A stretch of DNA of 64,000 nt. It comes from an uncultured Bacillus sp. GTDB lineage: Bacteria > Bacillota > Bacilli > ZCTH02-B2. The notes beneath the pieces were generated by a model, which worked only from the letters and a program-made list of their open reading frames with translations, ran no database searches and had not been told where the DNA came from. Shown here piece by piece: positions 32,513-48,226 of the stretch (within the stretch, counting starts at the first letter, position 1; the number at the start of each line of letters is the position of its first letter). Location of the stretch: positions 178,180-242,179 of the forward strand of contig CAMTVR010000012.1 in the NCBI GenBank assembly GCA_947085265.1, in the 5' to 3' direction. The position numbers and the translations under genes are program-made.

Positions 32513-34494
<1,982 letters not shown>

Positions 34495-35859
34495 TTACCC
34501 TTTTTGTATTCCATTCCGGATCTCTTCCCAGGACAAAGCGAGATGAACCGTATCTTCTTCCGACTGGTTTCCGAATTGCACTTCGATGATGTCCAGATCT
34601 TTGGAAGCTATGACGGCGTGCCTGGCTCCGGCCGGAAGTTCCCATACAGCGCCCGGACAAATGGAGAAAATCCGTCCGTTCAAGACCAATTCCCCCTCTC
34701 CGGCCGCCACGATCCACACCTTGCGGCAATGCGTGTGATACCGATAGCTGAGATGCTTACCCGCGCGGAGATGGATTTTCCGGGTCAATGCTTCATGATT
34801 CTGATCATCCAATACGCGAGACCAGCCCCAGCCCCGTTCCTCATACTTCACGCGTTTGGCAATCGCTGGTGCGGCATTTTTCACGAGGTTGCTCTTGGCT
34901 TTGTCCGCGACCAGGATTCCGTCCGGGCTCGCAGCAACCACCACATCCGAAACGCCAATCGTGACCACAGGAATTTCCAATTCGTTCAGAATGTGCACAT
35001 TCTTGCAGTCCACGCATTTTGCAAACGCTTCGTCTGTTCCGTCCATCTCCTGCGTGATTTCATTCCAGGTGCCCAAATCTTTCCAAAAACCAGAATAAGG
35101 AATCACCACCGCCTGACTGGCGTTTTCAACAATTTCATAATCAAAACTGATTTTTGGCAAATTCCCATATTCCTGCAGCATTTTTTCATAGTCCGTGGGC
35201 CACCCTCTTTTGGCCAATTCTTGGATCACATCACCCAACCGGAAGGCAAAAATGCCGCTGTTCCACAAGGCACATTGCGTGAAAAGCTGGTGCATCTCCC
35301 GCTCCTGCGGTTTTTCCTTAAAATACTGCACTTTTTGGTAGGCGATTTCAGAAGCCAGGTCCGTCTGTTCCCCGGAGGGAACAATGTAGCCGTATTGGGA
35401 TGACGGGTAGGACGGCGCTATGCCAATCAGGGCAAGTGCCGCGCCCGAGTGATGAATCACTTCCTCCAATTGTTTCATCTTCACAAAAAACGCATCGTCC
35501 GCATGAAAATCGACAGGCATCACTGTGATTACATCCGAACAATCGACACGCTGTTTTGAATAAAAATACGTTGCCGCCAATGCGATTGCCGGGAATGTAT
35601 CCCGTGGTTCAGGCTCAATGATCAGTGGCACTTCAGTTCCCAACTGATCGTGCACGAGATCGACATGCGTTTGCGACGTTGCAATGTACGCATCACTGGA
35701 CGGCAGATGTTCCTCCAGTTTTCTCCAGGTCCGTTGAACCATGGACTCTTTTTCGCCTTTTGGATGATGGAATATTTTTAAAAACGGTTTGGAACGCAGA
35801 TGATGGGAGAATGGCCACAACCTTTTTCCTGATCCCCCCGCAAGGAGCACCAATTTCAT
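34495..35859 (-). CDS. manC: mannose-1-phosphate guanylyltransferase / mannose-6-phosphate isomerase (type II PMI-GMP, ManC/XanB)
   Basis: LAGGSGKRLWP nucleotidyltransferase N-terminus plus C-terminal cupin (PMI) domain; ATG 35859 with GAGGTG RBS. Confidence 0.85.
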   Translation of the reverse strand: MKLVLLAGGSGKRLWPFSHHLRSKPFLKIFHHPKGEKESMVQRTWRKLEEHLPSSDAYIATSQTHVDLVHDQLGTEVPLIIEPEPRDTFPAIALAATYFYSKQRVDCSDVITVMPVDFHADDAFFVKMKQLEEVIHHSGAALALIGIAPSYPSSQYGYIVPSGEQTDLASEIAYQKVQYFKEKPQEREMHQLFTQCALWNSGIFAFRLGDVIQELAKRGWPTDYEKMLQEYGNLPKISFDYEIVENASQAVVIPYSGFWKDLGTWNEITQEMDGTDEAFAKCVDCKNVHILNELEIPVVTIGVSDVVVAASPDGILVADKAKSNLVKNAAPAIAKRVKYEERGWGWSRVLDDQNHEALTRKIHLRAGKHLSYRYHTHCRKVWIVAAGEGELVLNGRIFSICPGAVWELPAGARHAVIASKDLDIIEVQFGNQSEEDTVHLALSWEEIRNGIQKG

Positions 35860-36075
35860 TGTCCGCACCTCTATCCCCTTCGCTTTTACGACCATCATAT
35901 GTACAGGTGTGAAAAGGTGATCTATCCCACCCCGCAAAAATGGTCGTCTTTCCCGAGATCTCGTGCGGCATGTGCAACCGTCCAATCCAAACAAGCGGCA
36001 GGATCATATGGTAAAAGTGTTCACGCGCCAAGTTGATATGGCAAGAACGTCAAAAAACCTGGGAAGGGGATGAAC

Positions 36076-36921
36076 ATGGGCGGTTTATGGACAGACGAGG
36101 AGATCCTTGAAGCCATCCATCAGCGCAGATGGTATCACAAAATACCCATTCGTCCCGGCATCACAACCCCCGGCAATGATTACGACAGATTGTGGGACAT
36201 TATCCGTGCCGCCAGGAAACATATTGACTACACAGGAAAAAGAGTGCTCGACATCGCCAGTTTTGATGGCTTGTGGGCGTTTGAAGCCGAGCGGCTGGGG
36301 GCGAGCTTTGTCGTTGCCACGGATTGCTATCAGCCGGCTTTTGCGAATTTCGCGTTATGCAAGGAGATCCTAAAAAGCAATGTCGTTCCACTATACAACG
36401 TCTCCCCGTATTCCTTGTGGGACGGACTGAAAGTGATTCTGATGGATGACGAATCGACACCGCTTCCTTATCCGCAGCAAGTTCGCCACAACTTGTTCGA
36501 TATTGTTCAGCACCTCGGCCTGTTATATCACGTGCGGGATCCTCTGATGACTTTGTCTCAATCACGGAGCGTCATCAAGACAGGAGGGTTCTTGCTTCTG
36601 GAAACAGCGGCCATTTTGAACCCTGGAGAATCATTGATGGTGTACAACGGTCCGCCGGAGAACAAAAAACGCATTTACCTGGATGTGACCACGTGGTGGA
36701 TCCCGACCATCCAGTGTGTGATGGAAATGCTGAAAACCACACTGTTTGAGCCAATGCCGGAAACCATTCACATTCTTGAAGATCAGCCAATCAGCGGGTA
36801 TCCGCTCGGACGTATGGCCGTCGTTGCAAAAGCCGTTCCCGGGCATGCGATTGCCCAAGATACCTACAAAGAGCTGTTGCGCACCTTCCGCAATCCCGGC
36901 CTGGTCCCGGAATACCTGTAA
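36076..36921 (+). CDS. DUF1698/CmoB-like class I methyltransferase-fold protein
   Basis: block similarity to CmoB (WYH.I.....TPG; GKRVLD...; ...LYH...PL; LLETxxI), but the glycine-rich SAM loop is degenerate (DIASFDG instead of GxGxG); ATG at 36070 or 36076 after GGGAAGGGG. Confidence 0.55.
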   Translation: MGGLWTDEEILEAIHQRRWYHKIPIRPGITTPGNDYDRLWDIIRAARKHIDYTGKRVLDIASFDGLWAFEAERLGASFVVATDCYQPAFANFALCKEILKSNVVPLYNVSPYSLWDGLKVILMDDESTPLPYPQQVRHNLFDIVQHLGLLYHVRDPLMTLSQSRSVIKTGGFLLLETAAILNPGESLMVYNGPPENKKRIYLDVTTWWIPTIQCVMEMLKTTLFEPMPETIHILEDQPISGYPLGRMAVVAKAVPGHAIAQDTYKELLRTFRNPGLVPEYL

Positions 36922-36976
36922 CGACCAACCATCATGCGGCAAACGCCGGGCGGGAATGAAGCGACCGCACTGATTT

Positions 36977-38188
36977 TTGGCAAGCGAGGTGTGGCCTTTG
37001 TCTGCTCCTTTGGTTAGCGTCATTACCACATCGTATCACCGCGCCCGGTTTATCCGGGAGACGATCGAAAGCGTTTTGCAGCAGGATTATCCTTTCATTG
37101 AACACATCGTGGTGGACGGAGGATCGACGGACGGCACGGTGGAGATCCTGCAACAATACAGCCAACGCGGCGACCGTTTTCGTTTCGTCTCCGAACCGGA
37201 CCGTGGGCAGTCGCACGCGGTGAACAAGGGACTGGCCATGGCGCGGGGCGAGATCATCGGGTGGCTGAATTCGGACGACACTTATGTGCCGGGAGCCGTA
37301 AAAAAAGCGGTGCAGGCGTTTCAGCGCCATCCGGACTGGGCGATGATCCACGGCAGGGCATTTTTCATCGATGAGAACGGTCATGGACAAGGGCCAGTCG
37401 GTTATACCGCCCCCATCGACTTCGACAAATTGTTCCACGGATGTTTTGTCTCCCATCCGACAGTTTTTATCAGGAAAAGCGTGTTCCAACAAATCGGGGG
37501 AGCGGATGAAACCCTCAAATTTTGCTTGGATTACGATGTGTGGATTCGGATCGCCAGGAACCACGTCATCGGGTTTATCGACGATTTTCTCGCCAATTAC
37601 AGAGTTCATCGCGGCTCACAGACAAACCGCGAATGGAAAACAGTCGGCATTCCCGAGATCTTGAAAATCATCGCAAGGCATTACGGCACGGTTTCAAAAA
37701 CCTGGATGTCGATCTATTTAAGTGAAATGGAGGATAGAAACGTTTTTCAGATTTTGCGTCGCTTTCAAGCTGCCTCGTTGTTCGGCAATCCGCCGAAAAT
37801 CACAAGGATGAACAGGCACGAAGATTTCAGTGTTCCTCCCTTGTTCCGGATCACATTGGCATCGGATCCTGGATTCCCGATGAAAATGCTGCTTGTCAAA
37901 GGCAGGATGCTGGCTTCACGAATGTATGATGCGCACAAGTTCACGTGCACCGTACTGGTAAATGGACAAACGGTCAGGAATTACGACATCACAACATCCC
38001 CGTTCGTTTTTGAAATCCCGCTTCCCCCGGATCGCGCGGTCAATCAAGTGGACATTCTTTCCTCAAAGTTCTCCATGGCGGACCACTCCGACGCGAGAAA
38101 GCGGAGCTTTGTTGCGGAGGAGGTGATCCCCCTCTCCCGCACCGAAGCCGAGATTTATCGCACGCATCTTAAACCTCTCCTGGTTTAA
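36977..38188 (+). CDS. family 2 glycosyltransferase (GT-A fold) with a roughly 180-aa C-terminal domain of unknown function; paralog A
   Basis: SVITTSY...DGGSTDGT...NSDD motifs; highly similar to the next gene. Confidence 0.8.
   Translation: MASEVWPLSAPLVSVITTSYHRARFIRETIESVLQQDYPFIEHIVVDGGSTDGTVEILQQYSQRGDRFRFVSEPDRGQSHAVNKGLAMARGEIIGWLNSDDTYVPGAVKKAVQAFQRHPDWAMIHGRAFFIDENGHGQGPVGYTAPIDFDKLFHGCFVSHPTVFIRKSVFQQIGGADETLKFCLDYDVWIRIARNHVIGFIDDFLANYRVHRGSQTNREWKTVGIPEILKIIARHYGTVSKTWMSIYLSEMEDRNVFQILRRFQAASLFGNPPKITRMNRHEDFSVPPLFRITLASDPGFPMKMLLVKGRMLASRMYDAHKFTCTVLVNGQTVRNYDITTSPFVFEIPLPPDRAVNQVDILSSKFSMADHSDARKRSFVAEEVIPLSRTEAEIYRTHLKPLLV
37045..37297 (+). repeat. direct repeat copy 1 (5' region of GT2 paralog A); near-identical to 38351-38603
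   Basis: long stretches of identical DNA (for example gcgttttgcagcaggattatcctttcattgaacacatcgtgg...ggaggatcgacggacggcacggtgga) shared between the two tandem genes. Confidence 0.8.
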
Positions 38189-38299
38189 TGCGGTGAACAC
38201 GCGTTTTTCGGGAAGCGACGAATGGGAACGCGCGCGCCAGCCGGCGCCATTGGAGGTGCCCGCTTAACCCACTAAACTGAAAGCGATGGAGTGATCGAG

Positions 38300-39616
38300 A
38301 TGGCCCATCTTCCGCTGGTGAGCATCATCACGCCCAGCTACAACCGAAGCCGTTTTATCCGGGAGACGGTCGTGAGCGTTTTGCAGCAGGATTATCCTTT
38401 TATTGAACACATCGTGGTCGACGGAGGATCGACGGACGGCACGGTGGAAATTCTGCAACAATACAGCCAACACGGCGACAGGTTTCGCTATGTCTCGGAA
38501 CCGGACCGCGGCCAGTCGCACGCGATCAACAAGGGGCTGGCCATGTCTCGGGGCGAGATCATCGGGTGGCTGAATTCGGACGATACGTATCTGCCAGGCG
38601 CCATCCGCAAGGCCGTGCGCGCGCTGCTGCAGCATCCCCACTGGGCGATGGTGCATGGCTTGGCTTACGTGACGGACGAGCGGAGCCAGCGGCGGTCCGC
38701 TTATTCGGTGGAACCGGTGGATTACCAGAAATTGTTTCATGGTTGCCGCATCTGCCAGCCCACCGCCTTTATTCGCAAGGATGTCTTTCAACAGCTGGGG
38801 GGAGTGGATGAGTCACTGCACTTTTGCATGGATTATGATCTCTGGATCCGGATCGCCAAACGGCACACCATCGGGTTTCTCGATGAATATTTGGCCACTG
38901 CCAGAGTCCACCCGTCAGCCAAAAGCGTGACGCATTGGAAATCCATCGGCCTTCCCGAGATCCTGCAGACCATTTCCAAGCATTACGGAACCGTCTCCAA
39001 TGATTGGCTGCAATTGTTCCTGTCGCAACACGCGGATAAAGACATTTTCTGGTTGTTAAACCGCTTCAAGGATTATTCAGTTTTTGGAATTCCGCCAAAA
39101 ATCAGCAACATAAACCGATATGCCGATTTCTGGGTTCCCGCCCGATTGGTCATGACCGTGGAGGCGGATCCGGGGTTTCCCTTGCACGCCTTGCTGCTCA
39201 AGGGGAGGGTTCCCCTGTCCGCCTTCCCGTCCGCCCACAGGAACAAATATCGGCTCACTGTTCTTTTAAACCGTAAAATCACCGGCACCTTTTTCATTGA
39301 CCAGGAATCCTTCACTCTGGAAGTCCCTCTTCATACTTCCCAGTCATCCAACCACATTGAAATGATGTCATCCCACTTCATCCCTTCCGGGCATCCCCTG
39401 AACCCTCATCAGACGCCGCTCAGCTTTCTCGCCGACGACGTCATTCCTCTTTCCCGCAAGGAAGCGGAATTTTACCGCGTCTATCAGCGCTCTCCATACC
39501 TGGCTGCAGCTTGGATCTGGCAAAACAGGCAGCCTGTTCCTTGCCCGCCATCGCTTCAAGAAAATCCCTTTCGGAGCGGAACTGGAAGCACCCACGACGG
39601 GGAGGACACTGGATGA
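38300..39616 (+). CDS. family 2 glycosyltransferase with divergent C-terminal extension; paralog B
   Basis: N-terminal roughly 100 aa about 90% identical to paralog A, then diverging; ATG 38300 after GGAGTG RBS. Confidence 0.8.
   Translation: MAHLPLVSIITPSYNRSRFIRETVVSVLQQDYPFIEHIVVDGGSTDGTVEILQQYSQHGDRFRYVSEPDRGQSHAINKGLAMSRGEIIGWLNSDDTYLPGAIRKAVRALLQHPHWAMVHGLAYVTDERSQRRSAYSVEPVDYQKLFHGCRICQPTAFIRKDVFQQLGGVDESLHFCMDYDLWIRIAKRHTIGFLDEYLATARVHPSAKSVTHWKSIGLPEILQTISKHYGTVSNDWLQLFLSQHADKDIFWLLNRFKDYSVFGIPPKISNINRYADFWVPARLVMTVEADPGFPLHALLLKGRVPLSAFPSAHRNKYRLTVLLNRKITGTFFIDQESFTLEVPLHTSQSSNHIEMMSSHFIPSGHPLNPHQTPLSFLADDVIPLSRKEAEFYRVYQRSPYLAAAWIWQNRQPVPCPPSLQENPFRSGTGSTHDGEDTG
38351..38603 (+). 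repeat. direct repeat copy 2 (5' region of GT2 paralog B)
   Basis: see copy 1. Confidence 0.8.
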
Positions 39617-40629
39617 AAATTGTCATTCCAATGGGCTACCTGCACCTGGGCGGCGGGTGCAAAGTGCTGGTTGAGACCGCAAATGCGCTGGCCGCGCGCG
39701 GGCACGAGGTGGAACTGTGCCCGTTGCGGGTGCTGACGCAGATGTACCCTGTTCGCTGCAAACTGACCCCCATTCCCGTGCTGTCGAGGGAGTACATCCC
39801 TTACGGGGACATTGTTTTGCCCAACTTTTACACCACGTTTCGCCCCGCTTATTCCGCCTGGCCCGCCCAGACCGTGCGGCTCAGTCTGGGGTTTGAACCG
39901 TACTGGGTGCCCGACCCGAAGGAGGCGCTGTGGACGTACCGGCAAGGCGTGCCGATCCTCTCCATCTCCCGCTGGCTGGATGAGCAGATCCGCAAGCATG
40001 CGGGGCAACGCAGCACAGTGGTCAATCCGGGTGTCGATCTGACCGTATTCCACCCCGGTCCGAAATTGAAGACGTTCCGAACAGATAAACCAAAAGTCAT
40101 CATGTACATCGCCCGCGATCCCGGCGCGGGGTATCAATTGAAAGGGTTTCACGATTTCGTCGCCAGTCTGCAAATATTGAAAAACTGGTACCCTGATTCC
40201 TTTGTCGTGAACCTCGTGTGCCCCGAAAAGAAACTCGGCGTGCCGGGCATTCCGCATCAGGTTTATTCGCCGGCAAGCGACGCGGAAATGGCGCAACTGT
40301 ATCGGGAGGCCGATATGTTTGTCTCGTCGTCCTGGTTTGAAGGGTACTCCCTTCCCCCGCTGGAAGCAATGGCCTGCGGAACACCGGTGGCGACCACCAA
40401 TTCCGGCGGCGTGCTGGACTACTGCACCCATCTGCAAAACGGCTACATCGTGCCGCCGCGCAACCCGGTATTGCTCGCCGAGGGGATGCACGCCGTGCTC
40501 ACCAATGGTACCCTGTACAACAAGCTGGTGATCGGGGGGCTGCAGACAGCGAAGCGGTTTTCCAAAGACCGTTTTGAACGAGAAATTGTCACTGCCCTGG
40601 AAGCCATTTTTGAGGCGCGAATGCGCTGA
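39613..40629 (+). CDS. family 4 glycosyltransferase (GT-B, Glycos_transf_1)
   Basis: EGYSLPPLEAMACGTPV (EX7E motif); ATG 39613 overlaps the previous stop as ATGA. Confidence 0.8.
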   Translation: MKIVIPMGYLHLGGGCKVLVETANALAARGHEVELCPLRVLTQMYPVRCKLTPIPVLSREYIPYGDIVLPNFYTTFRPAYSAWPAQTVRLSLGFEPYWVPDPKEALWTYRQGVPILSISRWLDEQIRKHAGQRSTVVNPGVDLTVFHPGPKLKTFRTDKPKVIMYIARDPGAGYQLKGFHDFVASLQILKNWYPDSFVVNLVCPEKKLGVPGIPHQVYSPASDAEMAQLYREADMFVSSSWFEGYSLPPLEAMACGTPVATTNSGGVLDYCTHLQNGYIVPPRNPVLLAEGMHAVLTNGTLYNKLVIGGLQTAKRFSKDRFEREIVTALEAIFEARMR

Positions 40630-40686
40630 TTCCACAGGATCGGGAAATCCTTGAGAACTGCGCTCATGGGAGGGAGGGATTTTTCT

Positions 40687-41388
40687 GTGCGCATTGCACC
40701 GAAGGTTTCGGTGGTCATCCCGTTTTACAACTGCGCGTACGTGAATCAAGCCATTGAAAGCGCCCTGAACCAGAGTTACCCCCACATTGAGGTGATTGTC
40801 GTCAACGACGGTTCGACTCGGCACGTCGAGAAAATTACGCCGTACGTTCACCGGATAAGGTACATCGAAAAGGCCAACGGAGGCACGGCCAGCGCCCTGA
40901 ACGCAGGAATCCGCAACGCTTCCGGAACGTATTTCGCCTGGCTGAGTTCGGACGATTTTTACGACAGGCACAAAATTGCCAGCCAGATAGCGTTCATGCA
41001 ATCCGCCAGTGCCTTCGCCAGCCACACCGCTTTCTACTTCATAGACGCACACAATCGTATACGCCGCCCCACTCCCTACACCGTTTTTGGAAACCGGATC
41101 GATTTTTTTGAACAAATGAAACATGGTTGCCTGATCAACGGTTCCACCGTCATGCTCAGCATGGACGTGTTCGACCACGCAGGACTGTTCGACGAATCGC
41201 TCCGCTATGCGCATGATTACGAATTCTGGCTGCGCGTTCTGATGAGATACGACTTCCTTTACATGCCGCAACCTCTACTCTACTACCGCGTCCACAGTGA
41301 GATGGGATCAGGCAAATTCGCGCCGCAGCTGGCTAGAGAAACGCTGCTCGTCCGGCAAAAATACCAAAACATGGTTATTCATCCGTAA
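40687..41388 (+). CDS. family 2 glycosyltransferase
   Basis: VSVVIPFYNCAYVNQAIESALNQSYPHIEVIVVNDGS...LSSDD; GTG 40687 after GGGAGGGAGGG RBS (the ORF track start at 40651 is also possible). Confidence 0.75.
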   Translation: MRIAPKVSVVIPFYNCAYVNQAIESALNQSYPHIEVIVVNDGSTRHVEKITPYVHRIRYIEKANGGTASALNAGIRNASGTYFAWLSSDDFYDRHKIASQIAFMQSASAFASHTAFYFIDAHNRIRRPTPYTVFGNRIDFFEQMKHGCLINGSTVMLSMDVFDHAGLFDESLRYAHDYEFWLRVLMRYDFLYMPQPLLYYRVHSEMGSGKFAPQLARETLLVRQKYQNMVIHP

Positions 41389-41411
41389 GGCGCCTACAGG
41401 CGTCACTATCA

Positions 41412-41759
41412 TTACTCCAAGTATAGCTTTGTCTCCACGACGGCCGCCGCGCCGGCCGCGGCCAGCACGACCAGGATGGGAAAAGCGGCCGGCACCAAGA
41501 AGTACAAGGCAACGATCGCTGTGGAAGACCAGATGCCGACACACCAGTGACAGCTGAGGAGTATCCCTAGCCAGCGGCGAAAGCCTGAACCCTTCAGGTG
41601 GATGTGCCGTACCACCTGGCCGGAAGGGTCGGCTTCATAGGAAACGCTGAAAAACGGTTCACGCAAAAACGACATGATGTCGTCATAAACAATCAAATGT
41701 GTCAAACGAAAGCTGGCCAATACGATAATCACGAGATGGAGCCACGTCATCTCAAACAT
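41412..41759 (-). CDS. DUF1360-family small membrane protein
   Basis: about 115 aa, two to three TM helices, HLIVYDDI motif typical of Bacillus DUF1360 proteins; ATG 41759 with GAGGAAG RBS. Confidence 0.5.
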   Translation of the reverse strand: MFEMTWLHLVIIVLASFRLTHLIVYDDIMSFLREPFFSVSYEADPSGQVVRHIHLKGSGFRRWLGILLSCHWCVGIWSSTAIVALYFLVPAAFPILVVLAAAGAAAVVETKLYLE

Positions 41760-41862
41760 CAGTTCCACTTCCTCGTTAAGATTTGTTCCTGATTCACGCG
41801 CGATGCAAAAGCCGGACATGCCTGAAAAATTCACAGGCCTGTGCGCGCCGTTTTTTGTTTCG

Positions 41863-43140
41863 TCAGCACGACACCGCGATCCGATTGTTGGAGGAAAATT
41901 GCACCTGCTGTTCGCGGAAAAAGATGAATCCTTCGATCGTCACGCTGTTGCCGGATTCCGGTGTCATCACGGTCATCTGGAAGTTTTGGAAAGGATGGAC
42001 TTCCTTTGGCGCGATACGCACCGGCTGAACCGGAGCGATCCAGTACTCCCCCCGCTCCTTTGCCTTCTCAAACCAGTCTTCCTCCAGAAATCTCCAGCCC
42101 CTTACACCCATAGGACTTTGCACGCCGAGCGTCTCCACCATGTTGGCCGGCAAAATCTGCCCGCCCAGTTTGACGCTGCCAGGGGGATCGGCGCGCAAGC
42201 AAACGACCGGGTTGATCAATGCTTCCGTTCCTGTATTTTTGACATATAGGTTTCCGAAGATCAAAAACGGCTTACCCTCGATGTCGGAGCGGAGCACGGT
42301 GTAATCAAAAAACACCTCGGCAGCCAACTCTCCCTGTTCCGGCAGCCGGCTTGCTGCTTCGTCGATCGGCTCGCCGACCGGCTTCTCCCAGGCACTGGGC
42401 AACCTCCGTGTTTCCCTCTCCCCCTTCTCGAGCATCGGGGGTGTTGCCGCCAACATCCGCAAAACAGCGGGAGTCAGACAGGAGAGTGGCGAGATTTGCT
42501 GTTCTGTCAGCAAGTAGCGAAGGATGCCGGACGCGAAAAAGAAGGCTATCCGCTCTGCCCACTCCTTCCAGGCCGTTTGCGCCATGCTGGTCGGAAGCTG
42601 GCAGCAAACCTCGACAAATGCGTGGAACGGCTGGCACCCGCGCCGCCATTCGGTTGCGCACGGTATCCCCGCGCTCTTCCATTCTGTCTCCAGACAGTGC
42701 ACCAATGCTTGGTTGCACCGGCTTTCATGCTGAATGATAGTCATTCGGGGCGGAAGCCCGATGTCTGCCTTTTCGATGGTAAATTGTACGCATACATCCT
42801 TCTGTTCCGGCCAGTCCAACCGGTTCGGCGACAGAGCGACGCTCACCCCAGCGGCGGTGAGAAATCGTTCCGTCAGTGCCAAAATGTCCCGTTCATGTGG
42901 ATGGAAATCGGTTGCGGCGGGAACCTGTCGGTGCCTATCCTCCAGCACACACATTTTCCCTTTGAGCCCCGGCGCGAGAACAATCCTGTTTTCTTTTGGC
43001 TCCCACTGAAAGTGAAACCCGCTTTCTTGACAAAACAGACGAAAGGCAGGCAGTGATGTGAAAGGGATCGTCCCACACGTTTGACCAGCGTAAAAAACCG
43101 CAACATCATCCATCCCAAATCCCCCTTCTTTATCGGTCAT
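41863..43140 (-). CDS. hypothetical protein (425 aa, Cys-containing central region, no recognisable domain)
   Basis: long ORF with GAGGGAGGGG RBS 7 nt before the ATG at 43140; co-directional with the DUF1360 gene. Confidence 0.55.
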   Translation of the reverse strand: MTDKEGGFGMDDVAVFYAGQTCGTIPFTSLPAFRLFCQESGFHFQWEPKENRIVLAPGLKGKMCVLEDRHRQVPAATDFHPHERDILALTERFLTAAGVSVALSPNRLDWPEQKDVCVQFTIEKADIGLPPRMTIIQHESRCNQALVHCLETEWKSAGIPCATEWRRGCQPFHAFVEVCCQLPTSMAQTAWKEWAERIAFFFASGILRYLLTEQQISPLSCLTPAVLRMLAATPPMLEKGERETRRLPSAWEKPVGEPIDEAASRLPEQGELAAEVFFDYTVLRSDIEGKPFLIFGNLYVKNTGTEALINPVVCLRADPPGSVKLGGQILPANMVETLGVQSPMGVRGWRFLEEDWFEKAKERGEYWIAPVQPVRIAPKEVHPFQNFQMTVMTPESGNSVTIEGFIFFREQQVQFSSNNRIAVSC

Positions 43141-43250
43141 TCCGCATCCCCTCCCTCTTCCCCTCTTGCTTCATAGGCTGCTACGTGTTCATTGTATGTA
43201 CGCCCATCAGAAAGAGTGCCGGTCGGTGCGAATGCCCGCGGCAAACGGGT

Positions 43251-43277
43251 ACCTGCGCTCGGTTTTGGCATAGGATG
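43251..43277 (+). promoter_or_regulatory. possible mother-cell sigma-K-like promoter (AC-16nt-CATAGGATG) upstream of the ppGalNAc-T-like gene
   Basis: matches AC-N16/17-CATANNNTA except for the final base; by sequence only. Confidence 0.25.
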
Positions 43278-43299
43278 TCAGGAAGGAAGGAGTGAGCCA

Positions 43300-44181
43300 A
43301 TGTCTGACGGACACATGCCTTTTGTTTCCTTAATCATTCCGGCCAAAAACGAAGGGAATAACGTGCGTGCGACCGTTGAATCGGCATTACGCGTAAAAAC
43401 CCACCACCCTTTTGAGATCATCATCGTGGATGATGGTTCTACAGACGGATGCTGCGCGTTTTTGGCATCCGGAGAAAACGAACAGATCAAATTAATCACG
43501 ACTCAGGGAATTGGGGCTGCCCCTGCCAGAAACCTGGGTGCTGAGCATTCACTGGGAGAATACCTCATCTTTTGCGACGCCCACTTGTTCTTCCAGGACT
43601 ATTGGATGGATCAGTTGCTGGGACTGATCCGGACGGGACAAGCGAACGCCGTGTCCCCCGGCATCGCTTCGACAAACCGGCCGAATCTCGTCGGGTACGG
43701 CCAGACACTGAACCGCATGTTGGGCGTACAGTGGAACCGGCAAATATCCGTTCCCGCACCTACGGCGATTCTGCCGGGCGGATGTTTGGCCATGACGAGA
43801 GACGTCTTCTTCGATGTGGGCGGATTTGATCGGGGATTTCAGGTTTGGGGGTTTGAAGATGTGGAGATCTCGCTCAAGCTGTGGCTATTTGGCTACCAGT
43901 GCTACGTGCAGCCGGCAGTCAAGGTGTTCCATCTGTTTCGCGAATCTCACCCGTACCGCGTGACATTCGACCACGTATACTACAACATGCTTCGGATGGC
44001 CTACAGCCATTTTAACGAATCTCGGATCGCCTCTTGCCGCAGCTTGATTCACCACGCAGATCCAGCCCGGATCGAGGAAGCTGTATTGGCTGGTGGCGTG
44101 CTGGAACAGCGGAAACGCTACTTCGCGCGCCGGAAGTACGACGACGAATGGTTCATGCGCCGGTTCGGAATCCCGTTCTGA
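43300..44181 (+). CDS. GT-A glycosyltransferase resembling the catalytic domain of polypeptide N-acetylgalactosaminyltransferases (GT27-like / GT2; no lectin domain)
   Basis: block-wise match to the ppGalNAc-T catalytic domain: EIIIVDDGS, FCDAH (DxH), Gal/GalNAc-T motif WGFEDVEISLKLWLFGYQ (compare WGGENLEISFRVWQCGG), and HLFR (compare HVFR). Confidence 0.7.
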   Translation: MSDGHMPFVSLIIPAKNEGNNVRATVESALRVKTHHPFEIIIVDDGSTDGCCAFLASGENEQIKLITTQGIGAAPARNLGAEHSLGEYLIFCDAHLFFQDYWMDQLLGLIRTGQANAVSPGIASTNRPNLVGYGQTLNRMLGVQWNRQISVPAPTAILPGGCLAMTRDVFFDVGGFDRGFQVWGFEDVEISLKLWLFGYQCYVQPAVKVFHLFRESHPYRVTFDHVYYNMLRMAYSHFNESRIASCRSLIHHADPARIEEAVLAGGVLEQRKRYFARRKYDDEWFMRRFGIPF

Positions 44182-44311
44182 GAACACTGCGGATGGGAAA
44201 ATATACCTGGAATATTCACCTAAAAAATAGGCGTTTGTTTACAAGCAAAATGCCCTCCTCAACATAGTATGTATTGCGTAAAACACCACCTAGGAAAGGG
44301 AGGGTTCATAA

Positions 44312-45571
44312 TTGGTAAGGCAAATCAGACCCATCAAGGGTTTTCAAGTTCCGACGCCGACGCCGACCGCACCCGCGCCGATTCCGAACAATCTGCAAGA
44401 AGAATGCATCCGCGTTCAAAAGGTGTACGACTGGGTCGTGACCGCGAACCGGGATCAAAACAAAGTTCAAATTCCTAGCGACTGTCTGGCTCTTGTCAAC
44501 GAAGCCATCCAGGCCGGGCAAAATATCACTGTTCAATGTGTGGAGCCGGTCATCCCTTCACCATTCCCGATCATTCCGAAACCGCAGCCGACGCAGGGAC
44601 TCGACTTCTCCTGCCGGATCATCAGCATTCGCCGGGAAAACATCGTTATCGGGGGCAACGTCGTCCGGGTCGGCATTGTCCGCTTTCTCTTCAGTGCTAC
44701 GCTGCTGATCCGTGTTTTTGCCGACGGCACGCTGTTATGCGAATTTCCAGCCACTGTCCAGTTCGACGATGAAATCGTGCTCTGCCTGCCAGAACCGCTC
44801 GACGAAGACAACATCCTCTGCCGGATTACCGCGGTTGAGTGCACGCCGCTGGAGCCCATCCTTGGCGGCCAAATTCTGATTGACGTGGTCATTTGCAAAG
44901 AAATCCAGGTGGAAGCGGAAGTGAAGCTGGAGGTATTGGCAAAATTTTGCCAGCCTCGCCCAGCCGACATACCCGTACCGACACCCACGCCGCCAGCATT
45001 CCACTGCCCACCAGTCATCTTCCCGGCACAATGCCCAGAGATCTTCCCGCGTCAAAACTGCGACTGCCAGGCAACTGCCAACGTCATTCTCACCAATTCG
45101 ACCGTGCTGTTTGACGGCGTAGCGGAAGTCGGCACGGAACAATTAATAGCCGAGATCTGCCCGAACTGCAATCCGGGAGACAGTACCTTCTCTTATACCT
45201 TTGTCGACACGATCTCACCCACACCGACACCCACGCCTACCGACGAAGTCCCTGGCGATTTCAGCTTCGTCTTCACACCGGTACAAATCAGTACACCTGT
45301 TTGCTCAGCGATCCCTGGCGGCGGCCTGCAGGCCGTGGTCACCGGTACAGGAACCCGCACATTCACCGCAACCGGCACACAGGATACCCTTGCCTACGAG
45401 CTAACGCTGCGTGAACTGCCCGGCCTCACGGACGAATACCGCCTCATCCTGCGCAACGCGCTGGGTGCCATCGTCTTCGACACCGGGTTCAAGACAGTTC
45501 CGGACGCCAACCTCATCGTCCAAGACTGCATCACCTTCCCGGATGTCATTCCGGCGCCATCTGTGCCCTAA
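44312..45571 (+). CDS. cysteine-rich three-module protein with Thr-Pro linkers (TPTPT), no signal peptide; candidate glycoprotein substrate / spore-surface structural protein
   Basis: TTG start 7 nt after GGAAAGGGAGGG RBS; three TP-rich linkers (VPTPTPTAPAPIP, IPVPTPTPP, ISPTPTPTPTDE) separate Cys-rich modules; own terminator downstream. Confidence 0.65.
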   Translation: MVRQIRPIKGFQVPTPTPTAPAPIPNNLQEECIRVQKVYDWVVTANRDQNKVQIPSDCLALVNEAIQAGQNITVQCVEPVIPSPFPIIPKPQPTQGLDFSCRIISIRRENIVIGGNVVRVGIVRFLFSATLLIRVFADGTLLCEFPATVQFDDEIVLCLPEPLDEDNILCRITAVECTPLEPILGGQILIDVVICKEIQVEAEVKLEVLAKFCQPRPADIPVPTPTPPAFHCPPVIFPAQCPEIFPRQNCDCQATANVILTNSTVLFDGVAEVGTEQLIAEICPNCNPGDSTFSYTFVDTISPTPTPTPTDEVPGDFSFVFTPVQISTPVCSAIPGGGLQAVVTGTGTRTFTATGTQDTLAYELTLRELPGLTDEYRLILRNALGAIVFDTGFKTVPDANLIVQDCITFPDVIPAPSVP

Positions 45572-45594
45572 TCCAAATCACGCGCACAAACATG

Positions 45595-45630
45595 CGGGAG
45601 AACAACAGATTCTCCCGTATTTTCATTTCT
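45595..45630 (+). terminator. rho-independent terminator after the Cys-rich protein gene
   Basis: CGGGAGA-loop-TCTCCCG stem followed by TATTTTCATTTCT. Confidence 0.7.
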
Positions 45631-45741
45631 GTGTACCAAGAAACAAGAAAAGAGAAGGTTTACCCGTTGTCTTTATGCACATTTTCCTCCCTGTTACATA
45701 TGTCTATAGGGAAAAGCACACGGAATGGAGGAAAATATGCG

Positions 45742-47499
45742 ATGTCACTAAAAAAGAAACCCTCCGGAAAATTGAACCTGATTAAAGAACAGATGACCAT
45801 GCTAAAACGGCAAAGGGCTTACTATCAAACAAAAGCGACGCAATACAGCGAGGAACTCAATGATCTGAAAGAAAGATTGAGAGAAAGTATCCAACGCGAT
45901 CATGAAACCAGCAAACACATGGAGCAGTTAAACGCCGCGCTCATGCGATACCAAGACAAAGAAAAAGAATGGAACGGTGTTGTTGAACAACTATACAACA
46001 AAATCAACGACTTTGAAAAAAGGGAGGCCGATTACCTGTACTTGCTTGAACAAAAAGAAAAATCCATTGCCCATTATCAAAAGAAGCTGGGCACATGGGA
46101 AAAAAGGTTTGAAGAATTAAATGAAAAACTCAAAAAGTTTTCAGAATCGCCACATACGCCAGATTACCAACAGTTGCTGGCGCAAAAAGACGAATCGCTC
46201 GCCCATTATCAGGCGCTTGAAGCAGAATGGAACCAAGCATTGGAAAAACTGAACCAGAAGATTGAGAAGCAAAGGCAAAAGGAGGAAGAATACCGCCAAC
46301 AACTTGCCCAGCTCCACCAACAACTTGCCAATTACGAGGAAAAAGAAGCGGAAAACAGCCGACTCTTGGAACAAACGGAGTTGGCGTACCGAAAACTTCT
46401 TGACCAAAAAGACGAAGAACTACGTCAGCTGACCGAACAAAAAAAAGACCTGATCCGGCACCTTGAAGCTCAACTATCTGAATCGCGGCAACAGCTTGCC
46501 CAGCTCAACCAGCGCCTCGCGGCCTGCCAGGAAAAAGAAACCGAATATAGCCACCTTTTGGGGCAAACAGAGGCGAGATACAGAAAGCTGATTGAGCAAA
46601 AGGAAGCAGAATTTCTCCAGCAATTGCAGCAAAAAAACGAACAGCATCGGCAATTGATTGATCAAAAGGACCATCTGATTCAACGCTTGGAAGCCCTTCA
46701 AGCCGAATCGGAACAGCGCCTCGCCGACCTCCACCAACAACTTGCCAATTACCAGGAAAAAGAATCTGAAACGCTTAAATGGCTAGGTGAAACGGGTGAA
46801 AAACACAGGCAGCTGCTCACAAAAAAAGAGACGGAATTTAGGAAACTGATCGAACAGAAGGACAAGGAATACCGTCAGATCCTGGAACAAAAGGAAACAG
46901 AATACCTCCAGTTCCTGGAGGAAAAAGGGAAGGAATATCGGCAACTTTTGGAGCAAAGGGACGAGGAATATCGCAAGCTGCTGAAAGAAAAGGACAGGAT
47001 GATTGCCCGTTTTGAAGCGCGAGAAGAAGAACTTGAGCAACTTCTGCGGCAAAAAGAGCAGACGATTGCCCGCTATCAAGCCATGGCACTGGAATGGAAA
47101 CAGAATCTGCGTTCTCCCATTCACGAGGAAGAACACTTGGAACAGCTGAAAGAGAACCAAGAGAGCTTATCCGAATACCGGAAACTGCTGCAACAAAAAG
47201 ACGAAGTGATTGCACAGTACGAAGAAAAGGAGCTGGAATGGAAACAGGCGATGGAACAACTGCAACAGCGAATCAGGGAACTGGAAGAGAAAGAGGAGAA
47301 ATACAAGAAGGCGATCAGTGATTATCAGGAAAAGGAGGCAAAATACAAAAAAGCTTTGGAGCAAAACAGCTTTGTGGAACCAAAGGAAGTTACCGTTTCC
47401 ACACTGCTCAACGGCGCTGTCTATGGCAGCCATGCAACGTTTCTCAAGCCGCATCACACCTCTCAGTCCGCACCGTTTAATCCGTTTAAAAACATGTAG
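45742..47499 (+). CDS. long coiled-coil repeat protein (Q/E/K-rich; roughly 11-aa repeats of type K-E/D-x-E-Y-R-x-L-L-E-Q)
   Basis: ATG 45742 10 nt after GGAGGAAAA; about 586 aa with heptad-like periodicity; repetitive at both DNA and protein level. Confidence 0.65.
   Translation: MSLKKKPSGKLNLIKEQMTMLKRQRAYYQTKATQYSEELNDLKERLRESIQRDHETSKHMEQLNAALMRYQDKEKEWNGVVEQLYNKINDFEKREADYLYLLEQKEKSIAHYQKKLGTWEKRFEELNEKLKKFSESPHTPDYQQLLAQKDESLAHYQALEAEWNQALEKLNQKIEKQRQKEEEYRQQLAQLHQQLANYEEKEAENSRLLEQTELAYRKLLDQKDEELRQLTEQKKDLIRHLEAQLSESRQQLAQLNQRLAACQEKETEYSHLLGQTEARYRKLIEQKEAEFLQQLQQKNEQHRQLIDQKDHLIQRLEALQAESEQRLADLHQQLANYQEKESETLKWLGETGEKHRQLLTKKETEFRKLIEQKDKEYRQILEQKETEYLQFLEEKGKEYRQLLEQRDEEYRKLLKEKDRMIARFEAREEELEQLLRQKEQTIARYQAMALEWKQNLRSPIHEEEHLEQLKENQESLSEYRKLLQQKDEVIAQYEEKELEWKQAMEQLQQRIRELEEKEEKYKKAISDYQEKEAKYKKALEQNSFVEPKEVTVSTLLNGAVYGSHATFLKPHHTSQSAPFNPFKNM
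46100..47330 (+). repeat. internal tandem repeat region of the coiled-coil gene
   Basis: recurring DNA units (for example caacaacttgccaattac[cg]aggaaaaagaa at about 46321 and about 46738; repeated gaacaaaagga... units); produces the many spurious antisense ORFs listed in the ORF track. Confidence 0.7.
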
Positions 47500-47779: not shown

Positions 47780-48226
47780 ATGCTGCCGGCTGCTGCGGAC
47801 GACGCTCTTTACATTAACGCAACGGGAGGCGTTTTTCCGGTAGCCCAACGTGTCTGGGATGAAATGGTGAGGCATTGCCTGGAACAACTGCCAAATGAGG
47901 CATGTGGGCTCCTTTCAGGAAAGCGCGGTAGAGCAGAAACGATCTGGAAGATGGATAACATGGAGCACAGTCCTGTTTCATTTTCAATGGACGAGGGACA
48001 AATCCGAAGCGTATTTCATGGATTGGACAAAATGGGTGAAGAGCTGGTTGGGATTTATCACTCCCATCCGACTGCGCCCGCCTATCCTTCCCCGCATGAC
48101 ATGGAACACGCAACTTACCCGGAGGCGGCGTACTTGATCGTTTCCCTTGCCAACCTTCAACCATGGGTCGGGTGCTTCCGCATCCGCGGGAAGCAAGCTA
48201 TCCCTTTGCCCATTTTCATTTTTTGA
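47780..48226 (+). CDS. Mov34/MPN/PAD-1 (JAMM) family metalloprotease-like protein
   Basis: EACGLL...YHSHP....SPHD JAMM motif (E-x(n)-HxH-x(7)-S-xxD); start uncertain (ATG 47780 or 47864). Confidence 0.7.
   Translation: MLPAAADDALYINATGGVFPVAQRVWDEMVRHCLEQLPNEACGLLSGKRGRAETIWKMDNMEHSPVSFSMDEGQIRSVFHGLDKMGEELVGIYHSHPTAPAYPSPHDMEHATYPEAAYLIVSLANLQPWVGCFRIRGKQAIPLPIFIF

Follow-up and report, generated by a model that had tools for sequence, protein, structure and literature searches.

Background

To go by its title and by later citations, a 2014 study of BMQ_0737 (PMID 24974944) reportedly concerns a role of this protein in the integrity of the outermost spore layer. In Bacillus (Priestia) megaterium QM B1551, a fusion of BMQ_0737 to green fluorescent protein (GFP) appears as a bright shell whose radius is that of the outermost coat/exosporium proteins, and on intact spores it binds anti-GFP antibody (PMC4656864). 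In Clostridia, CsxA and CsxC have been described as lattice-forming components of the exosporium, whereas Bacilli are said to use different folds (bioRxiv 10.64898/2026.09.03.749163). Here we describe a gene at positions 44312-45571 (+ strand) of a 64,000-nucleotide stretch of DNA from an uncultured Bacillus sp. (contig CAMTVR010000012.1), the whole of which is called the window below. Judged by its sequence, the gene can be named confidently as one for a BMQ_0737-family spore coat protein, a family that is already catalogued by NCBI and little studied. In its Brevibacillus-like host, the product, the window protein, probably has a structural and morphogenetic role in the outer layers of the spore (outer coat, crust or exosporium).

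Assignment to the BMQ_0737 family

Residues 32-246 of the 419-amino acid (aa) window protein match the NCBIfam model NF052457, 'BMQ_0737 family morphogenetic spore coat protein', with 103.7 bits, where the curated cut-off is 71, and an E-value of 1.4e-29. The match spans profile positions 2-198 of 199, and the isolated domain scores 106.3 bits. The three signatures of NF052457, CIxVxKVYDWV, KLEVxAxFCxPR and CPxxxFPxQCPxxFP, are all present in the window protein and are invariant or nearly so in 82 full-length and 50 stand-alone members. Several close homologues are named as BMQ_0737 family by NCBI itself. An earlier note on this DNA, made from the letters alone, had proposed a structural protein of the coat, crust or exosporium, and the NF052457 match supports this proposal together with the outermost-layer position of the family founder. 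The same note did not recognise the fold; the family itself is a known one, with an NCBI entry.

No Pfam family matched the window protein even at E <= 10, Spore_coat_CotZ included, in line with the earlier remark that there is no homology to CotY, CotZ or ExsY, and none was found on the 132 family members (82 + 50) either. Scans of the window protein against Pfam and NCBIfam returned no match to an enzyme family; homology to a characterised non-structural enzyme had been named beforehand as the result that would speak against a structural role. A PDB sequence search with the family profile gave only chance matches (E about 0.8), and tblastn detected no paralogue elsewhere in the window.

Among 5.8 billion proteins searched, 171 relatives were found, the best of them 85% identical; the closest genome record, also at 85%, is that of a metagenome-assembled 'Bacillota bacterium'. 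The Brevibacillus choshinensis relative is 74% identical, other Brevibacillus relatives 55-66%, and those from Peribacillus, Cytobacillus, Rossellomorea, Halobacillus, Fictibacillus and thermoactinomycetes 29-46%. By this ranking, the window derives from a sporeformer close to Brevibacillus. The organism-named matches all come from sporeforming Bacillales, and many further matches are metagenome sequences. No Priestia megaterium member was present among the matches listed in three protein searches, a genome scan and a cluster look-up.

The window protein contains 18 cysteines. They amount to 4.3% of its residues, where 15 other window proteins average about 1.4%; Pro, Val, Ile and Thr account for 40%. 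In an alignment of 82 full-length homologues, from which the conservation figures were taken, all 18 cysteines are kept in at least 71% of the sequences and 15 of them in at least 89%, with C32, C158, C195, C213, C232 and C241 being invariant. This conservation of the cysteines lies far beyond chance. The motifs K-V-Y-D-W and K-L-E-V-x-A-K-F-C-x-P-R are likewise conserved. Thr-Pro (TP) stretches are located at aa 14-25, 223-229 and 303-310; between lineages they vary in length and composition at the same three positions, and many members have none. The description of a Cys-rich protein with TP stretches was thus accurate. Inspection of hydropathy and sequence revealed neither an N-terminal hydrophobic segment nor a signal-peptide-like N-terminus, and the highest 19-residue hydropathy (1.76, at aa 117-135) falls within Arg-containing beta-strands, in agreement with the signal peptide and transmembrane helix having been reported as absent.

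Gene boundaries and promoter-like region

The gene and its flanking elements, in the order of their positions, are as follows.

44225-44236, + strand: GerE-box-like element AAATAGGCGTTT, matching the consensus RWWTRGGYNNYY and conserved in related loci
44263-44270, + strand: CATA-type -10 element CATAGTAT, conserved, putatively of the sigma-E/sigma-K type
44293-44304, + strand: ribosome-binding site (RBS) GGAAAGGGAGGG, 7 nucleotides (nt) 5' of the start, kept in related loci
44312-45571, + strand: coding sequence of the BMQ_0737-family spore coat protein, 419 aa, TTG start, assigned by hidden Markov model (HMM) match
45592-45630, + strand: intrinsic terminator, a GC-rich hairpin (45592-45620) plus T-rich tail, with an equivalent in 20/20 loci

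According to the open reading frame (ORF) listing and the raw sequence, a single + strand ORF runs from the TTG over 419 codons and a stop. The TTG is the earliest possible start downstream of an in-frame stop, and the RBS in front of it is kept as GGAAAGGAAGG across 18 related loci. The TTG start is supported because the starts of the homologues coincide, agreeing within one or two codons, and because an N-terminal I-x-G-x-Q motif is common to them. The TTG start, the strong RBS and the length of 419 aa were therefore all present as the earlier note had given them.

The stem of the terminator is followed by the T-rich tail TTTTCATTTCT. The energy of the hairpin is -15.8 kcal/mol for the centroid and -18.6 for the minimum free energy structure, with z = -4.1 relative to shuffles, and the loci that were sampled for a hairpin and T-run 3' of the orthologue extend across genera. 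The gene accordingly has a terminator of its own, as had been claimed. Since it also has its own conserved promoter-like region, it is likely monocistronic, the other part of the claim; this part is less secure at the 5' side, where no terminator was found after the end of the upstream glycosyltransferase gene and read-through from that gene may occur.

In a pattern scan, the GerE-box-like element proved to be a perfect match to the consensus, which is quoted as RWWTRGGYN2YY in PMC2695774. The block AAAAAT(A/G)GGC is kept in nearly all of 19 related loci. Taken alone, the box occurs 17 times in the window, so that it is the conservation of the box and not its occurrence that carries the argument. 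The CATA-type element lies 3' of the box, and CATAGTATGTA is kept in related Brevibacillus loci; there, the GerE-box and CATA blocks are both conserved and their flanks diverge. The composite of the GerE box and CATANNNT was found once in the window, against 0.27 occurrences expected. No sigma-70-type promoter was detected on the + strand of the 130-nt upstream region. CATA-type -10 elements are of the kind used by the mother-cell sigma factors sigma-E and sigma-K, and in B. subtilis such an element in combination with GerE activation is a hallmark of late mother-cell genes of the outer coat and crust. With the sigma factor assigned by this general consensus, the upstream region is suggestive of a late mother-cell promoter of the sigma-K/GerE type.

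Predicted structure

To describe the anatomy of the protein, we divided it into the following segments.

44312-44392, + strand: N-terminal tail, aa 1-27, with the I-x-G-x-Q motif and TP stretch 1; predicted disordered, predicted local distance difference test score (pLDDT) <50, TP content variable
44405-45049, + strand: NF052457 domain, aa 32-246 (HMM match, AlphaFold2), comprising domain A (34-205), the EAEVKLEVLAKFCxPRP segment and the Cys/Pro connector CPxxxFPxQCPxxFP with TP stretch 2
45059-45568, + strand: C-terminal domain, aa 250-419, predicted 8-stranded barrel (AlphaFold2)
45212-45265, + strand: TP stretch 3, aa 301-318, predicted disordered loop within the barrel, pLDDT <50, variable between lineages

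AlphaFold2, supplied with the homologue alignment, modelled the full protein with a mean pLDDT of 82. Domain A is predicted to consist of six strands of 15-22 residues, a short strand at aa 72-77 and one helix, with pLDDT mostly >85 over aa 40-200. By contrast, confidence is poor over aa 206-250, where the family is at its most conserved. The least confident structured part is aa 201-249 (nt 44912-45058), EAEVKLEVLAKFCxPRP...CPxxxFPxQCPxxFP, with a pLDDT of 42-69; conservation is 0.87 over aa 201-220, and pLDDT is low over aa 206-241. A contact between subunits would fit here, because the highest conservation coincides with low confidence in the monomer, and the model hints that aa 201-249 may be an inter-subunit interface.

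When modelled alone, aa 250-419 give one domain with a pLDDT of 89 and a predicted template modelling score (pTM) of 0.83. Its predicted fold is a single 8-stranded up-and-down beta-barrel, which bears a four-Cys cluster (C250, C252, C283 and C286) as well as the conserved C331 and C406. The earlier note had divided the protein into three Cys-containing modules separated by TP linkers. Because aa 250-419 fold together, its second and third modules are one domain, and for the same reason the third TP stretch is no linker but a loop, predicted disordered, that belongs to the barrel domain. The three modules therefore hold at the sequence level only, with two folded domains predicted, domain A and the barrel, while the three TP stretches themselves are present.

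In hhalign comparisons, neither internal repeats among sub-segments of domain A nor a similarity between domain A and the barrel were detected, the lone match (95.7%) being that of the overlapping segment itself. A comparison of folds had also been proposed for each module; run with the full model, Foldseek found nothing in the PDB at E <= 1e-3. The BMQ_0737 family has neither a Pfam entry nor a solved structure, and two confident domain models now exist for it, one of a long-strand beta domain and one of an 8-stranded barrel.

Family architecture

Searched exhaustively with HMMER, 1.84 billion representatives contained 362 matches at E <= 1e-3, of which 209 reached <= 1e-10 and 80 reached <= 1e-30. 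Architectures were tallied for the best 150.

Domain A alone, about 205-250 aa, ending directly after the CPxxxFPxQCPxxFP tail: 55 of the best 150
Domain A plus barrel, as in the window protein: 29
Domain A and barrel behind a long N-terminal extension: 3
Domain A as the C-terminal part of a larger protein: 24
Domain A with another kind of sequence after it: 13
Barrel only, some of these possibly fragments: 13

Each of the 50 stand-alone forms tested matches NF052457, the best with 2.3e-73. The larger fusion proteins carry HYR, DUF7948 with SBBP propellers, FG-GAP, DUF11, YncE-type propellers, choice-of-anchor A or Kelch domains, and a signal-peptide-like N-terminus was seen in none of the 19 fusion proteins examined. 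Cell-surface-type domains on a coat module, in proteins that lack a signal peptide, would be expected if the module attached them to the spore from the side of the mother cell. A tentative extension, to which we give clearly less credence than to the coat assignment as such, is that the core of about 215 residues is a portable module for assembly and anchoring at the spore surface, possibly a very divergent SPOCS domain, mounting varied cargo without secretion. The architectures suggest that the cargo would be the 8-stranded barrel in the window protein and HYR, beta-propeller, FG-GAP, DUF11 or choice-of-anchor domains in the paralogues. A mobile core of this kind suggests a natural system of spore-surface display, which may be of use in the engineering of spore display.

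Fusions were recorded in other genomes as P0007, P0008, P0032, P0036, P0044, P0084, P0085, P0121, P0142, P0154, P0164, P0167, P0170, P0191 and P0207. Brevibacillus genomes hold several such fusion paralogues.

Genomic neighbourhood

The coat gene closes a cluster of about 10 kb with genes for sugar-nucleotide synthesis and glycosyltransferases (window 33523-44181). The genes of the cluster and the neighbours of the coat gene are listed below, with GT2 and GT4 denoting glycosyltransferase families.

33523-34479: NAD-dependent epimerase
34495-35994: ManC-like nucleotidyltransferase
36070-36921: methyltransferase
36977-38188: GT2 glycosyltransferase
38291-39616: GT2 glycosyltransferase
39511-40629: GT4 glycosyltransferase
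40651-41388: GT2 glycosyltransferase
41412-41834, - strand: DUF1360 protein (PF07098, E = 6e-32), 3' of the 425-aa gene
41863-43140, - strand: uncharacterised 425-aa protein with 3.1% Cys, divergently upstream, no Pfam/NCBIfam match
43192-44181: GT2 glycosyltransferase, adjoining the coat gene
45742-47499, + strand: 585-aa coiled-coil protein rich in E, L, Q and K, after the terminator, with its own RBS GGAGG at 45727-45731
47780-48226, + strand: JAB/MPN-domain protein (Prok-JAB, E = 1e-23), downstream

The B. subtilis sps and cge loci serve as a comparison, and the cluster looks like a spore-surface glycan locus. The neighbours in 79 related loci were counted by their position. Downstream of the family gene, the JAB gene is retained in 63 of the 79, in many genera, and a homologue of the 425-aa gene lies beside the family gene in 39, also across genera, which makes the 425-aa protein a candidate partner coat protein. 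The adjacent GT2 gene is kept in 23 loci, all of Brevibacillus, and the coiled-coil gene is found 3' of the orthologue in 23 as well, nearly all Brevibacillus-like. In Peribacillus, the orthologue is surrounded by genes for DUF1360, JAB and a 413-aa unknown protein and by glycosyltransferase genes (locus L080). In Sutcliffiella rhizosphaerae (L082), a stand-alone domain-A gene occupies the same position next to genes for a 393-aa unknown protein and DUF1360, and this family gene adjoins spoVA, spoVIF and yhcN-type genes. The DUF1360 gene, the gene for a protein of about 400 aa, the JAB gene and the glycosyltransferase genes are candidates for a conserved set involved in outer-layer assembly.

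Some further observations on these loci can be added. The operon that adjoins the stand-alone family gene in Sutcliffiella (L082 2377-5765) contains spoVAC-spoVAD-spoVAEB together with DUF1657, YetF/DUF421 and YhcN/YlaJ genes, and it resembles the mobile spoVA2mob heat-resistance operon. The start that the ORF finder gave for the coiled-coil gene, 45592, falls inside the terminator and is probably wrong; the GC content at third codon positions (GC3) of this gene is 0.51. A 571-aa ORF at 39556-41271 (- strand) runs antisense to the GT4 and GT2 genes, whose Pfam matches are on the + strand, and is probably spurious; its tblastn match in locus L001 likely reflects conservation of the opposite strand.

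Proposed role and alternatives

If the window protein is a component of the outer spore layers, its gene would be transcribed late in the mother cell from the sigma-K/GerE-type promoter, and the protein would be made in the mother-cell cytoplasm. Domain A and the KLEVLAKFCxPRP...CPxxxFPxQCPxxFP segment would act as an assembly module, which docks onto the surface of the developing spore or polymerises on it. In an oxidising environment, after lysis of the mother cell, disulphide bonds of the conserved cysteines may then lock the layer. The C-terminal barrel and the flexible Thr-Pro stretches would face outward as the exposed part, and the latter may be O-glycosylated by the neighbouring glycosyltransferases.

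Several points weigh against this picture. The localisation evidence belongs to the B. megaterium founder, not to the window protein or the Brevibacillus orthologues, and the founder was compared through the family model. A possible -35 'AC' stands 20-21 nt away from the CATA element, more than is expected for sigma-K, and the sigma assignment is uncertain because of this. All 23 loci with a GT2 neighbour have TP runs, yet all of them are from Brevibacillus, so this association is confounded by phylogeny. Finally, disulphide cross-linking, oligomerisation and glycosylation are steps that we infer.

The outer-layer assignment could be refined if domain A were a divergent SPOCS/DUF3794 domain (SpoVID-CotE-SipL superfamily), forming strand-swapped trimers that build up a disulphide-stabilised crystalline lattice, a mode of assembly proposed for the clostridial CsxA and CsxC. 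We regard this as possible but doubtful. UniRef names several members 'DUF3794 domain-containing' or 'SipL SPOCS domain-containing', the modelled domain A appears to be built of very long beta-hairpins, and the monomer model is of low confidence over the most conserved segment, as would be expected of an interlocking interface; exosporium lattices of Cys-rich SPOCS proteins have moreover been described (bioRxiv 10.64898/2026.09.03.749163). The UniRef label was, however, not reproduced in Pfam searches, in which DUF3794 gave no match at E <= 1 for the 132 family members and none at E <= 10 for 9 members that carry the label. The window protein itself gave no match to PF12673, PF20918 or CotE at E <= 10. 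In hhalign, domain A (50 sequences) reached a probability of 0.16% against SpoVID-N PF20918 (15 sequences) and 0.36% against a single CotE sequence, PF12673 itself not being among the profiles compared, and domain A has no detectable internal repeat. No SPOCS protein was among the matches listed in the PDB structure searches, with CotE not contained in the PDB copy searched. If the link were true, Cys-rich envelope proteins of the SPOCS type would exist in Bacilli too, against the current view that only in Clostridia are such layers built from this fold.

As a side observation, the members labelled SPOCS or DUF3794 in UniRef include P0005, P0017, P0185, P0303, P0325, P0328 and P0336, for which Pfam shows no such domain even at E <= 10.

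A comparably low probability is given to the idea that the protein is mainly an adaptor and no bulk building block, with domain A anchored in the coat and the barrel presenting, in the manner of YceI or a lipocalin, a binding site for a lipid, isoprenoid or glycan. The combination of domain A with many unrelated domains in paralogues and the glycan-synthesis cluster next to the gene are in its favour, but the Sutcliffiella locus has a stand-alone domain A at the same genomic position, which argues that the barrel is dispensable for the core function of the locus.

It is rather improbable that some of the conserved cysteines bind a metal (Zn or Fe-S) instead of forming disulphides. The main candidate for such a site is the CxC...CxxC tetrad C250/C252/C283/C286 at the mouth of the barrel, each cysteine of which is kept in at least 98% of the homologues. 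In the predicted topology, the tetrad is found where strand 1 begins and strand 2 ends within one hairpin, so the four residues are probably adjacent, and the mother-cell cytoplasm, in which the protein would fold, is reducing. Nevertheless, Pfam revealed no metal-binding family in the window protein or in the family members, and two disulphides explain the tetrad equally well.

That the protein is not a spore protein but a vegetative one, secreted or at the cell surface, or else an enzyme, is very improbable. In favour of this, secreted proteins often have TP-rich linkers and beta-rich domains, and the HYR, DUF11 and propeller domains that paralogues carry fused to the core are of a type usual at the cell surface. 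Against it, there is no signal-peptide-like N-terminus in the window protein or the examined fusions and no enzyme match, the organism-named matches come from sporeformers only, and the curated family has a spore-coat annotation and a founder whose localisation was determined by experiment. The findings overturn no current idea; they extend a little-studied family.

Comparison with known systems

Small 8-stranded barrels such as the transmembrane domains of OmpA, NspA and OmpW, YceI, Cap15 and de novo designs are 3-8% identical to the barrel domain, which has no membrane context and shares no motifs with them. On the predicted model, the likeness to OmpA/YceI-type barrels appears to be topological only, and family membership is not supported.

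CotY, CotZ and ExsY (Pfam Spore_coat_CotZ) are, like the window protein, Cys-rich and made in the cytoplasm, and they have a role in the outermost layer, which for the window protein is presumed. The cotYZ genes are expressed late in the mother cell with involvement of GerE. The two groups have no sequence match, and whereas the window protein is predicted to be all-beta, the predicted fold of CotY/ExsY is alpha/beta (bioRxiv 10.64898/2026.09.03.749163).

CsxA and CsxC of Clostridium sporogenes, and likewise CdeC and CsA/CsB, are Cys-rich SPOCS/DUF3794 proteins of the exosporium or parasporal layer. They resemble the window protein in being Cys-rich, in an all-beta fold (predicted for the window protein), in being made in the mother cell (presumed for it), and in a proposed self-assembly locked by cooperative disulphide bonding. 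Lattice formation has been proposed for CsxA/CsxC; in the BMQ_0737 family it would be hypothetical. In contrast to CsxA/CsxC, the host belongs to the Bacillales and not to the Clostridia, and no sequence or profile similarity of the BMQ_0737 family to SPOCS families was detected.

The closest described system is BMQ_0737 itself. The N-terminal 215 residues of the window protein match the full family model with its signature motifs, the host in both cases is a sporeformer of the Bacillales, and there is no export signal. The NF052457 model is only 199 positions long, and in many members, of about 205-250 aa, the domain stands alone. To this common core, the window protein adds the C-terminal 8-stranded barrel and lineage-specific Thr-Pro stretches.

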